Made by a program: the position numbers and the translations under genes. From IMG/VR virus record IMGVR_UViG_3300027659_000009, positions 102,353 to 166,352 of that record: DNA of 64,000 bases. The stretch is one strand, 5' to 3'. Each line of letters begins with the position of its first letter. Positions within the stretch are counted from its first letter, which is position 1. The notes beneath the pieces were generated by a model. That model did no database searches. It was not told the origin of the DNA and was given only the letters and a program-made list of their open reading frames with translations. The stretch comes from a virus. Below are positions 39,296 to 43,162 of this stretch, in pieces.

Positions 39296-40219
39296 ATGAA
39301 AAGTCAATATGATGTTATTTTGGGTGACACCAAAAATGTGTTAAAGGAGATGATTGAAACTGGTGAAAAGGTGGATATGATTTTTACTTCACCACCGTAT
39401 TATTCTATGAGAAAGAACTATAGTGGTAATAATGATGGTGAGGTTGGTTCAATACACGTTGACGATTATGCGGATTGGTTTTTAGAATTTACAGATTTAT
39501 TTCTTAAAGTTTTAAAACCTAACAGTAGTTTTTTCTTAAACATCAACGATAAAATCGATGGTGGGGTGATTCATCCAGTTTTAGATGAGTTAAAGTATAA
39601 AATGCATAAACAGGGTTGGTTTTTGGTTGCGAAACCTTATATATGGTTTAAAAAGAACGCAATCCCAACAAACTGTAAATATAGGGCAATAGATAGATAT
39701 GAATATGTTTTTCATTTCTCCAACTCCAATAAACCTAAATTTAGGGCAGATAACTGTAGAACTGAACATTCGGAAGTAACTAAAAAAAGATTTTTAAAAC
39801 CTGTTACTACGATTGGATCGAGGGATGGTGTCTATGACTCACAAATGAGGGTATTAAACGAAAAAGGTTCATTACCACATAATGTAGTAATTGCGGCTTC
39901 AGAAACAAATCCCAGTGTTTTACACCCAGCACCATTTTCTGTGGAGTTAGTGGATTGGTTTGTAAGAATTGGTAGTGACGAAGGTGATGTAATTATGGAC
40001 CCATTTGCAGGTTCATCAACCACAGGTATTGCCGCACTAAAAAACAATAGAAAGTTTATTGGTGTGGATTTGATACCGTTTAATGTTGAGTTTGGGACTA
40101 AACGATTAAATCACTTTATAGAGACTGGTGACGAATATATCCCTAAAAATCTTTTAGAGGATAAGGGTATTGACTCCAATTATTATAAAATTAAAGGTAA
40201 ACATATTAATAATCCGTAA
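39296..40219 (+). CDS. DNA amino-methyltransferase (beta class, N4-mC/N6-mA)
   Basis: FTSPPY motif IV before DPFAGSSTTG motif I; HPAPF. Confidence 0.9.
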   Translation: MKSQYDVILGDTKNVLKEMIETGEKVDMIFTSPPYYSMRKNYSGNNDGEVGSIHVDDYADWFLEFTDLFLKVLKPNSSFFLNINDKIDGGVIHPVLDELKYKMHKQGWFLVAKPYIWFKKNAIPTNCKYRAIDRYEYVFHFSNSNKPKFRADNCRTEHSEVTKKRFLKPVTTIGSRDGVYDSQMRVLNEKGSLPHNVVIAASETNPSVLHPAPFSVELVDWFVRIGSDEGDVIMDPFAGSSTTGIAALKNNRKFIGVDLIPFNVEFGTKRLNHFIETGDEYIPKNLLEDKGIDSNYYKIKGKHINNP

Positions 40220-40547: not shown

Positions 40548-40844
40548 ATGGTTTTAAATAAGTACGAAGAAAATGGATCAATAGAATGTTTATACGATTC
40601 ATCGAATATTTTGGGTTCAAAATATATTATGACAGATAAAAAGTTAGCAATAATTTTTGGTTCAGGTAGACAATATGTTTATGAAGGTGTTAAATATGAA
40701 GATTATAAGAAATTTGAATCATCTGAAAGTCAAGGTAAAACCCTACATACCATTCTTAAAAAATACCCGTATACACAATCTAAAGATACATTAGATGTTT
40801 TACCTTTATTAGAACAAATTAATGAAATAAAGAATAATTTATAA
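40548..40844 (+). CDS. KTSC-domain protein
   Basis: SSNI....Y.....L.I.F..G..Y.Y..V....Y..F....S.GK. Confidence 0.8.
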
Positions 40845-40845
40845 G

Positions 40846-41361
40846 ATGAATAGTTTAGATAAAAAATATATAGACTTACTTCAAGACATTTTAGATAATG
40901 GAGTAACAAAAGAAACAAGAAATGGTGAAACACTATCAGTATTCGGAAGACAAATCAGACATAAAATGAGTGATGGGTTTCCATTACTTACAACAAAGAA
41001 AATGGCTTGGAAGACTATGGTGACCGAGTTGTTATGGTTTTTAAGAGGTGATACAAACATCAAGTTCCTTGTGGATAATAATTGTCATATTTGGGATGGT
41101 GATGCTTATAAGAACTACTTACATAAAGTTATACGTGACAAAGACATTGTACAATACTTAAAATCATATTCAAAAGATACAAAAGGAGTCCCTACTATTG
41201 AACTCTATTCAAAAGATGAGTTTATTGAGCGAATTAAAAATGATGATGAGTTTGCAAAGAAGTGGGGAGAGTTAGGTAAAATTTACGGACATGGTTGGCG
41301 TAATTGGAATGGTAAATCGGATAATGAACTTTATGAAGATTATTTGAAAAAAGTTAAATAG
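40846..41361 (+). CDS. thyA: thymidylate synthase, N-terminal fragment
   Basis: [41 protein letters not shown]. Confidence 0.9.
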
Positions 41362-41417
41362 TGTTAGTGTTTTTCCATTTATTACCATATTTATATATAG
41401 TAAACAATTGAAACTAC

Positions 41418-42110
41418 ATGGACTACAAAAAAATACACAACAAGATAATTGACAGAGCAAAAAATAGGGAATTAGAAGGATATGTTGAAAAACATCACAT
41501 TATACCTAAATGTATGAACGGAACTAATGAACCGGATAATTTAGTAAAATTGACTGCAAGAGAGCATTTTTTAATTCATTGGTTATTACACGAAATGTAT
41601 CCAGATAATACTGATTTGAAATATGCTTTTTGGTCAATGTGTCGTAATTCAAATAATCAACAAAGATACAAACCATCTTCTAGAATATACGAATATGCTA
41701 AACATAAAATGTTAGAAATATGGGTTAAATTTAAACCATCTGAGAAACAGATAAGGTCAATTAAAGAAAATTTAACTGGAACTAAATGGTATCATAAACC
41801 TGATGGTAGAAATTTACGAGCATTTCCAAATGACCCTAAAATCATTGAAGAAGGTTGGTTACAAGGTAGGTTTGGTGGGAAATCAATATCTGATAAGGCA
41901 AATAAGGATAAAGAAAAAAAATATAATGGGAAAAAAATACCATCCACATCAAATAAAAAGTGTTCAATTGATGGGGTTGAGTTTGAATCTGCAAAATCAG
42001 CGTCAGATTATCTTAATATAAATGAGTATTCTCTTAGATGGATATTACAGGGTAGAGGTAGTTCGCAAAAGCACAAAGAAAAATATAAAAATTGGTTTTA
42101 CATAAATTAA
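41418..42110 (+). mobile_element. MobE-like free-standing HNH homing endonuclease inside thyA
   Basis: Y.EKHHIIPKCM.GT....NLVKLTAREHFL.H.LL, the T4 MobE-type N-terminus; late motif at ~41388. Confidence 0.85.
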
Positions 42111-42114
42111 AAGT

Positions 42115-42789
42115 ATGAAATATACACACGAAGATGGAACTCTTTTTACAAAAGAAGAGTTTCTACAAAAATTAAAAACAGATAGTGAGTTCAACGATGA
42201 ATTTGGTAACAAAGGAATTGACCAAATATCTGAATTGATTGAACAGTTAAAAGATAATCCTGATTCTAGACGTATGGTTGTGAGTGCATGGTCAGTACAC
42301 GATTTACCAAATCAAGTACTTCCACCTTGTCATTACGGATTTCAAGTTTATACAAGAGAGTTGAGTTGGGAGGAAAGATATGAATATATGTATAACACAA
42401 ATGTTAGAGCAGATGATGGACTTAGACCACCACTAACTCCTGAAATGTTAGAAGAGTATAACATCCCTAAACGAGCAATCTCTTTAATGTGGAATCAACG
42501 TTCATGTGATGTCCCACTCGGGATTCCAATGAACATTGCATCATATGGACTTCTTTTAACGATGATTGCAGATGAAGTTAATATGATACCTGAGGAACTA
42601 ATTGGTAATTTAGGAGATTGTCACATTTATTTAAACCAAATGGATGGTGTTAAAGAACAAATTAATAGAAAACCATTTGAATTACCTACAGTATATGTTA
42701 GAGACGGAATCCACTGTTCATCTGTAAATGACGTTATTTTGGAAAACTATCAATCACATCCTAAGATTTATTTTCCACTCTCTAATTAA
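42115..42789 (+). CDS. thyA: thymidylate synthase, C-terminal (catalytic) fragment
   Basis: IDQI, PDSRR.VVSAW, LPPCH, QRSCD.PLG.P.NIASY, GDCHIY.NQ. Confidence 0.9.
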   Translation: MKYTHEDGTLFTKEEFLQKLKTDSEFNDEFGNKGIDQISELIEQLKDNPDSRRMVVSAWSVHDLPNQVLPPCHYGFQVYTRELSWEERYEYMYNTNVRADDGLRPPLTPEMLEEYNIPKRAISLMWNQRSCDVPLGIPMNIASYGLLLTMIADEVNMIPEELIGNLGDCHIYLNQMDGVKEQINRKPFELPTVYVRDGIHCSSVNDVILENYQSHPKIYFPLSN

Positions 42790-42829: not shown

Positions 42830-43162
42830 ATGATAGGAGAAGCGAAAATAGTACATTTAAAGAGTAACGCACAAAAATTAGAGACGTGGATTGCAATGAT
42901 TAATGGTGAGATTGTCGGTCACATTTATATGGAGAGAGAAGATGGGTTAAAAATAAAATTCTTAGACGCTTGGGTACATGAGGATCATAGACGTAAAGGT
43001 ATTTTTAGAATGTTATGGGAGGCTAGATGGAATTATGTGGTAGATAAATATAGTGGGTGGTTAGCGTACGCATGGTGTAAACCAGCATCTTTACCTTTAT
43101 TATTAGAAAAAGGTTTTGATGCAGGTGAAATGTGTACATATGTAGAAAAGAAGATAGATTGA
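42830..43162 (+). CDS. GNAT acetyltransferase
   Basis: WVHEDHRRKGI motif A; LL.KGF. Confidence 0.8.
   Translation: MIGEAKIVHLKSNAQKLETWIAMINGEIVGHIYMEREDGLKIKFLDAWVHEDHRRKGIFRMLWEARWNYVVDKYSGWLAYAWCKPASLPLLLEKGFDAGEMCTYVEKKID

Follow-up and report, generated by a model that had tools for sequence, protein, structure and literature searches.

The locus described here raises the question of how a viral thymidylate synthase gene (thyA) can be broken in two by the gene of a homing endonuclease and still be maintained, and from where the two broken ends obtained the additional residues they carry. It lies within a stretch of 64,000 nucleotides, called the window below (positions 102,353 to 166,352 of the 166-kb IMG/VR virus record IMGVR_UViG_3300027659_000009, the completeness of which is estimated at ca. 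51%); the closest cultured relatives are the Flavobacterium “immuto” myophages, and the sequence of the window is near-complete in 14 freshwater metagenome DNA runs from at least 12 studies. Three open reading frames (ORFs) follow one another on the plus strand, to which all window coordinates given here refer: thyA-N (40846–41361; 171 amino acids), which matches positions 1–108 of the PF00303 profile (119 bits) and includes a small-domain insert of the L. casei type; an HNH ORF (41418–42110; 230 amino acids), which is a free-standing homing endonuclease gene of the Mob family; and thyA-C (42115–42789; 224 amino acids), which matches positions 105–264 of the same profile (170 bits). The two thyA halves have their own start and stop codons and are separated from the HNH ORF by 56 and 4 nt, exactly as an earlier note, made from the letters of the sequence, had claimed; only 60 nt of the insertion are outside the endonuclease ORF, and coverage of the profile by the two halves is continuous, with no stretch lost between them. 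The explanation that we regard as probable, taken as a whole, is that of a thymidylate synthase (ThyA) encoded as genes in pieces: a mobile cassette with imported ends, two polypeptides that reassemble, and later loss of the endonuclease or re-fusion of the gene.

Across the two halves, all catalytic and substrate-binding motifs are kept, as seen from alignments to solved structures: the N-terminal Arg, DSRR, the Cys of PPCH, QRSxD, the Asn of NIASY, and GDxHxY; thyA-C carries them as DSRR, PPCH (with the catalytic Cys), QRSCD, NIASY, and GDCHIY, and the same motifs are invariant in three alignments with relatives. The new ends are a different matter. Intact relatives have a variable loop of 3–40 residues between the motifs WRxW and IDQI; in the window this loop is replaced by a tail of 17 extra residues plus stop codon at the end of the N-half (41308–41361), which is not found in intact relatives, and by an ATG-started head of 34 extra residues at the beginning of the C-half (42115–42216), which is a diverged copy of a helix pair from the small domain. 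The native small-domain insert itself (41095–41277) consists of helix a1′ (residues 84–97), a variable linker, and the helix pair a2′ (residues 120–144), as delineated by an AlphaFold2 (AF2) model and by alignment to 4dq1 and 3uwl; it is of the known L. casei/S. aureus type, the best PDB matches of the N-half being 4dq1, 3uwl, and 1lca, and AF2 places its helices at residues 84–97, 123–132, and 134–140 with a predicted local distance difference test score (pLDDT) of 80–95.

The HNH ORF had been called MobE-like in the earlier note, and its matches outside Pfam agree with this: it hits PHROG 655 (“homing endonuclease”) with an E value of 2.4e-46, and its N-terminal 100–124 amino acids are 40–47% identical to annotated Mob-type HNH genes of T4-like phages, many of which adjoin nrdA, topoisomerase, or helicase genes. 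The score against the HNH family of Pfam, 16.6 bits, lies below the cut-off of 21.4. Among 11 copies, the ratio of nonsynonymous to synonymous change (pN/pS) of the endonuclease is 0.18. The spacer in front of it (41362–41417) is almost invariant among relatives in a 10-locus alignment and contains an imperfect palindrome with the motif CATATTTATATA (41386–41397), which lies 21 nt before the endonuclease ATG and resembles a late promoter. A motif of this kind, (C/T)ATATTTATATA, occurs 11 times in the window (3.5 copies expected), with nine copies on the plus strand (12888, 15183, 17896, 20972, 21733, 28263, 33671, 41386, and 44182) and several of them 10–25 nt upstream of start codons; it is a candidate for the late promoter of the phage, and the spacer would then be the endonuclease's own late-type promoter or a regulatory leader. 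The single-sequence fold of the spacer is not more stable than that of shuffled versions (z −0.84), covariation is absent, the sequence being invariant, and a scan for sigma-70 promoters and terminators gave nothing above chance.

Relatives were sought in IMG/VR with the C-half, the endonuclease, and the tail DNA as queries. Two kinds of junction have to be distinguished, the one after WRxW, called the W site, and a split inside the small-domain insert, called the S site. The tail and head junction of the window, that is, the W site, is present in about 20 further IMG/VR viral contigs, where it shows four states of occupancy: the window's endonuclease (76–89% identity), in many cases followed by additional cargo ORFs; a second HNH endonuclease that has 36% identity to it (L105/L107/L119 and L117); a GIY-YIG endonuclease (L123); and no endonuclease, with L110 keeping nothing of the second HNH gene but its final 16 codons, from which it follows that the endonuclease gene was lost there while thyA stayed split. 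A decayed version of the W site, with truncated thyA fragments and a broken endonuclease, is found in L092. The arrangement is thus known from some 20 contigs and survives exchange and loss of the endonuclease; with all catalytic motifs kept in the thyA halves, this upholds the earlier claim that a free-standing Mob-family HNH gene splits thyA in a manner analogous to nrdA of phage Aeh1. To judge from its occupants, the split junction acts as a hot spot for insertions. Varied small cargo ORFs of 78–142 amino acids, one with an HExxH motif, lie between the endonuclease gene and the C-half in L012:1904-2140, L086:3198-3542, L093:3198-3473, and L090:1671-2516. Near thyA in related contigs, a phage-borne transfer-messenger RNA gene (88.6 bits) and a tRNA gene are present (L096:959-1349 and L110:3215-3287).

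Upstream of the junction the window reads YGHGWR (41284–41301), a variant of the conserved motif YGKQWR. The exchange of Gln for Gly was seen in 13 of the 15 listed W-site loci with intact endonuclease, most of these alleles being YG(H/A/Y)GWR; intact genes and the endonuclease-free L110 have YGKQWR. The exchange may be a target-site immunity polymorphism which protects against self-cleavage, and the variant in the window would then be a candidate for an endonuclease-resistant target.

The mobile unit is a cassette of ca. 940 bp (41310–42246), comprising the tail codons, the spacer, the endonuclease gene, the head codons, and ca. 10 codons of the IDQI helix. On its left, thyA-N (40855–41309) is 83% identical at the nucleotide level to the intact thyA of L066; on its right, thyA-C from 42247 on is 82–85% identical to the intact thyA of L006/L008/L009, which places the breakpoints in the DNA at ca. 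41309 and ca. 42247. Phylogenetic trees agree: in the N-half tree the window groups with the intact L066/L050 (Shimodaira–Hasegawa-like approximate likelihood ratio test, 99), and in the tree of the C-half core it groups with the intact L006/L008/L009/L019, L066/L050 forming a separate clade with a support of 99. Because the two flanks match different intact genes and the trees concur, the split thyA is a chimera of two thyA lineages joined at the cassette. Among split loci the identity plateau is higher within the cassette, and an endonuclease-free relative is present in the same metagenome, where a DNA contig joins 41312 to 42256. The signs of mobility are therefore of three kinds: intact alleles in close relatives, mosaic flanks, and an endonuclease-free allele in the same metagenome. 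The cassette is in no cultured phage of the GenBank set; the closest one, Flavobacterium phage immuto, has an intact ThyA of 423 amino acids.

Single-chain forms were sought with the end of the N-half in a collection of 5.8 billion proteins, of which only longer proteins were considered. Four of them (P0002, P0003, P0005, and P0006) contain the full tail-head module in cis; in P0004, P0007, P0009, and P0010 it is partly deleted in frame, and in P0011, P0012, P0019, and others only a scar is left before IDQI. A DNA pattern search for the tail gave no fused form in IMG/VR; these forms come from the larger protein collection only. The linker of P0002 (…NLKSGIM…) is an alternative reading frame of the 3′ end of the second HNH gene, and in L105 and L110 this frame runs into the start of the C-half. 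Since the linker thus derives from an endonuclease gene, the fused forms arose from split ones when the endonuclease was deleted. All 12 of the split loci that had been identified via the endonuclease alone have an intact module, versus 4 of 12 single-chain genes (Fisher p 0.0013, relatedness not being corrected for); that the module is constrained in split genes and lost from continuous ones fits the pattern expected of an assembly aid. One of the fused proteins, P0003 (779 amino acids), additionally carries an intein with a LAGLIDADG endonuclease at the catalytic cysteine (between PPC and CHYG), which is matched by intein families of Pfam.

Taken together, the following scenario can be proposed. 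A cassette of ca. 940 bp would have settled in thyA, in the surface loop that links the WRxW motif to the IDQI helix; it would bring an endonuclease gene with its conserved, late-promoter-like leader and, at the same time, supply the upstream fragment with a C-terminal tail and stop codon and the downstream fragment with a start codon and a 34-residue head. Each fragment would be translated on its own, and the two would come together non-covalently as active ThyA, presumably an (N.C)2 dimer, with neither RNA nor protein splicing. Tail and head would descend from the flanks of an older endonuclease insertion at the S site, where the N-fragment closed with helix a1 and the C-fragment opened with the a2 pair, and these flanks would have moved with the endonuclease to the W site. 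The W junction would then have become a landing pad for exchange or loss of endonucleases, and in-frame deletion of the endonuclease would yield a re-fused gene in which the tail-head module decays. The separate parts of this scenario differ in strength. The sequences show two fragments, each in its own frame, that add up to a whole ThyA, the lack of splicing signals, a mobile cassette with mosaic flanks, ends that were imported and are under selection, the ancestry of the head, and the series of loss and decay. It is likely that the fragments associate into an active (N.C)2 enzyme, and tail and head may pack together and aid assembly in the manner of a clasp; as to the specific form this could take, namely that the tail helix (residues 159–170) and the head helices (residues 13–30) pack like a1 and a2 and so stabilise the assembly, the odds are about even. 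The more general idea, that tail and head constitute a portable self-associating adaptor, that is, two halves of a helical subdomain which accompany homing endonuclease genes and allow these to enter a new loop of an essential enzyme without effect on the phenotype, is put forward tentatively, its chances falling a little short of that.

The system of the window is of the same kind as the mobE-split nrdA (nrdA-a/mobE/nrdA-b) of Aeromonas phage Aeh1, which has been described, as far as the work citing it relates, as a ribonucleotide reductase encoded by “genes in pieces” (Friedrich et al. 2007, cited in PMC2988022); what sets the window apart is the enzyme, the demonstrable source of the tails, the swapping of endonuclease families at a single junction, and the series of loss, re-fusion, and decay. 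In both cases a free-standing HNH gene of the Mob family splits an essential gene of nucleotide metabolism which relatives have in one piece, the fragments possess start and stop codons of their own as well as tails not found in intact homologues, and neither intron nor intein is present. Aeh1 concerns another enzyme (NrdA) in the one phage described, whereas the split ThyA is found in ca. 20 contigs with four states of occupancy; unlike in Aeh1, the head can be traced to small-domain helices of the enzyme via another split site, and re-fused and decayed descendants exist. The tails of Aeh1 NrdA, which were created by the insertion of mobE, are essential; they are dispensable for pairing of the fragments and needed for dimerisation (Crona et al. 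2011, PMC3045599). This essentiality was shown for Aeh1; a corresponding role of tail and head in the split ThyA is a possible one. The same authors proposed that tails might move with the endonuclease from another site, which they could not document for Aeh1 NrdA, and left open both how the tails originated and whether they occur in other fragmented genes too (PMC3045599).

Further split genes are known from the T4 family, namely those of topoisomerase gp39/gp60 with mobA and of DNA polymerase gp43 A/B with a seg-like gene (reviewed in PMC2988022); for gp39/gp60, tail-like extensions were noted (PMC3045599). They resemble the split thyA in that an endonuclease-associated break divides an essential gene into separately translated polypeptides, and differ from it in that nothing points to new ends taken from elsewhere in the same gene and no re-fusion series is documented. 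In td of phage T4, likewise a phage thymidylate synthase gene targeted by a homing endonuclease, a group I intron contains the gene of I-TevI, and self-splicing leads to a single polypeptide; the window differs from it by the lack of a ribozyme core, the position of the insertion, and the formation of two polypeptides. The ThyA proteins of L. casei, S. aureus, and E. faecalis (1lca, 4dq1, and 3uwl) have the homologous helical insert of ca. 50 residues, the second helix pair of which is copied in the head; unlike the window's enzyme, they are single chains with one copy of the insert. No paper on a thymidylate synthase split by a free-standing endonuclease was found in the literature, the coverage of which was incomplete, and this is a weak sign of novelty.

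Several points weigh against the proposed scenario. Compared with a profile of 62 native a1 segments, the tail aligns in the right register with a score that is marginal (empirical p 0.027). The last eight codons of the tail and the 56-nt spacer are nearly invariant at the DNA level, synonymous sites included, so part of the conservation of the tail may serve the endonuclease, as promoter or for regulation, and not the enzyme. As the tails of Aeh1 NrdA act in dimerisation, a “clasp” may, by analogy, be the wrong picture. By an approximately unbiased test, all split N-halves may form a single clade (p 0.32, not rejected); repeated invasion is therefore not claimed from the N-half tree, and mobility rests on the chimera of two lineages. 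Lastly, with the record ca. 51% complete, another thymidylate synthase may be encoded outside it.

The most serious alternative, which we still consider unlikely, is that tail and head are passengers that do nothing for the enzyme and are kept because they hitch-hike in the cassette or because their DNA is promoter, regulatory, or recognition sequence of the endonuclease. The near-invariance of synonymous sites just described is in keeping with it, as are the pairing of Aeh1 fragments without tails and the low confidence with which AF2 places the tail, its helix (residues 159–170) being predicted with a pLDDT of ca. 40 when the N-half is folded alone. Selection on the head points in the other direction. 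Among split genes its pN/pS is 0.10 (pN 0.065, pS 0.61), with pN below that of the enzyme core; the ratio is 0.20 for the tail and, at similar pS, 0.33 for the N-half and 0.49 for the C-half core. By this measure the head is the most constrained protein segment of the locus, in spite of near-saturation of synonymous change. Moreover, the module outlasts replacement and loss of the endonuclease as long as the gene remains split, and it is deleted stepwise after re-fusion. In the AF2 model of the C-half the head forms helices 13–22 and 24–30 (pLDDT 75–79), a helix-turn-helix that parallels the a2′ helices 123–132 and 134–140 in the model of the N-half. A prediction of the complex of N-half and C-half core, with the head as the scored partner, gave 0.38 versus 0.22 for one control; it provides no answer and is used neither for nor against binding.

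As to the origin of tail and head, the earlier note had taken both new ends to be copies of an internal insert and had placed the split at a duplicated subdomain, which implies duplication on the spot. The first of these claims stands for the head: residues 10–34 of the C-half align with residues 120–144 of the N-half with 40% identity and 76% positives (BLASTP, E 4e-5); for the tail the likeness is the marginal one given above. The second has to be revised, because the head has closer kin elsewhere. At S-site splits the N-fragment ends just after a1, and the C-fragment starts with a short leader, after which comes a2; the occupants of the site are GIY-YIG genes (L018, L055, and L081), a DUF7487 nuclease-like ORF (L124 and others), or a Mob-like HNH gene (L131). 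A profile of W-site heads scores the heads of four S-site loci with 33–47 bits and 40 native a2 segments with 3–28 bits, and the match to the S heads reaches into the leader (H-x-D-G-x-P-x-T-K-E-E-F). In terms of identities, the gene's own a2′ shares 13 of 33 residues with the W head, S and W heads share 17–22 of 34, and the head of L123 shares 22–23 of 36 with S heads. Both breaks can occur in one gene, as in L080, where thyA is in three pieces (L080:1439-4741). The order in this contig is an N-fragment of 109 amino acids, a GIY-YIG/NUMOD endonuclease at the small-domain site, a middle fragment of 65 amino acids, an HNH endonuclease gene of the window type, two small ORFs, and a C-fragment of 246 amino acids.

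The locus L123 is taken as decisive for an import of the ends. Here the thymidylate synthase belongs to the short E. coli type and lacks the small-domain insert; all the same, the break is at the W site, the tail is the same (…NELYEEYLKKVK…), and the head is S-like. Between the GIY-YIG gene of L123 and the S-site endonuclease of L081 the identity is 41% (E 2e-38). As the head is closer to S heads than to the gene's own helices, and as L123 has the module and lacks the insert, the ends were imported with the cassette and not duplicated in place; that an endonuclease cassette took tail and head along when it moved from S to W and entered a foreign thyA is, as part of the whole scenario, probable. 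Duplication of the gene's own small-domain helices in place, followed by insertion of the endonuclease, is by comparison disfavoured and appears quite improbable. It would explain the alignment of the head with residues 120–144, and single-chain genes with the module in the W loop do exist. But all four S heads outscore all 40 native a2 segments, the head is less similar to its own a2 (13/33) than to S-site heads (17–22/34), L123 has no insert that could have been duplicated, and the endonuclease-derived DNA in the linker of the fused P0002 marks that form as secondary.

Two further observations concern thyA ends and fragments in related contigs. In L005:4780-5460 and L093:4266-5105, endonuclease ORFs (one HNH, one GIY-YIG) directly follow thyA, and they end in 13–15 residues which repeat the C-terminus of thymidylate synthase (…NYQSHP.I.APL…); apparently a cassette was inserted in frame near the 3′ end of thyA together with a replacement for the end of the gene, which would be a habit similar to that of the imported ends at the W site. 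In addition, conserved “mini-TS” ORFs of 95–134 amino acids are located just upstream of thyA in L012:316-666, L081:2498-2875, L133:1456-1860, and L092:4283-4570. They seem to be made of two phage-specific inserts, the small-domain helices and an RELS…IPTK hairpin insert, have no catalytic core, end in …IESYE, and match no Pfam family; the copy in L092 has itself been hit by a cassette.

It is very improbable that the thyA fragments are decaying pseudogenes and that the phage uses an enzyme of the host or another one. The truncated fragments and broken endonuclease of L092 are an example of such decay, and the record is only about half complete; but every catalytic motif is kept in both fragments, purifying selection acts on them, they are intact in ca. 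20 contigs of diverged background, and neither a second thyA nor a thyX was found in the 166-kb record at its completeness of ca. 51%.

Removal of the insertion by splicing has to be considered since T4 td and other phage thyA genes contain group I introns with endonuclease ORFs, and since the relative P0003 has a true intein elsewhere in thyA. By the ORF map and by Pfam and Rfam searches, the HNH endonuclease is an ORF of its own outside any intron or intein. No group I intron or other relevant Rfam family matched at E ≤ 10 between 40500 and 43200, and no group I intron was found in 17 related loci; no Hint or intein domain was detected in the split thyA with Pfam, the same method which does detect the intein of P0003. 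Both findings agree with the earlier note, which had the gene split with no intron and had seen no intein motifs; the stop and start codons that separate the ORFs likewise speak against an intein. Six metatranscriptome runs contain small portions of the sequence at a depth of ca. 2; contigs from RNA libraries span the unspliced junctions at 41247–41397 and 41385–41535 (depth is low and carry-over of DNA possible), and none joins across the insertion, stretches left uncovered at this depth being uninformative. That group I intron splicing, intein splicing, or translational bypass would lead to a one-chain enzyme is thus scarcely credible, given the absence of any Rfam match and Hint domain, the endonuclease ORF that occupies all but 60 nt of the insertion, the conserved in-frame stops and separate start codon, the varied cargo ORFs that relatives hold in the same gap, and, as a weak argument in view of depth and carry-over, the RNA contigs.

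As to the surroundings of the split gene, an N6/N4 DNA methylase (39296–40219) and a KTSC-domain protein (40548–40844) are encoded upstream and a small GNAT acetyltransferase (42830–43162) downstream; the KTSC-domain gene also precedes thyA in L080 and L095. The C-half itself has a variable insert of 30–80 residues (residues ca. 82–118; 42358–42468) between the strands FQVYTRE and ISLMWNQRS, which is present in the entire phage clade and not in cellular ThyA, and immuto phages have a further insert of ca. 45 residues close to the C-terminus of ThyA.

With thyA, a second enzyme with endonuclease-made tails becomes available, one of which many natural variants exist and in which the tails can be traced to the flanks of an older insertion site that moved with the endonuclease. 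What appears to be the full life cycle of a homing endonuclease can be followed within one gene: a sensitive empty site, invasion and splitting, and exchange of the endonuclease, followed by its decay and loss with the split kept, in-frame re-fusion, and decay of the tails to a scar. For annotation it is of relevance that phage pangenomes list such halves as two “thymidylate synthase” genes or miss them. ThyA is small and, by complementation of thyA in E. coli, easily assayed, which makes it suitable for studying how split proteins are rescued by short interaction peptides, and the tail-head pair is a candidate for a natural split-protein adaptor. If this is true, homing endonuclease cassettes would take an “antidote to fragmentation” of their own along as they move between sites, even to unrelated forms of an enzyme as in L123, and it would be dropped once the gene is re-fused.

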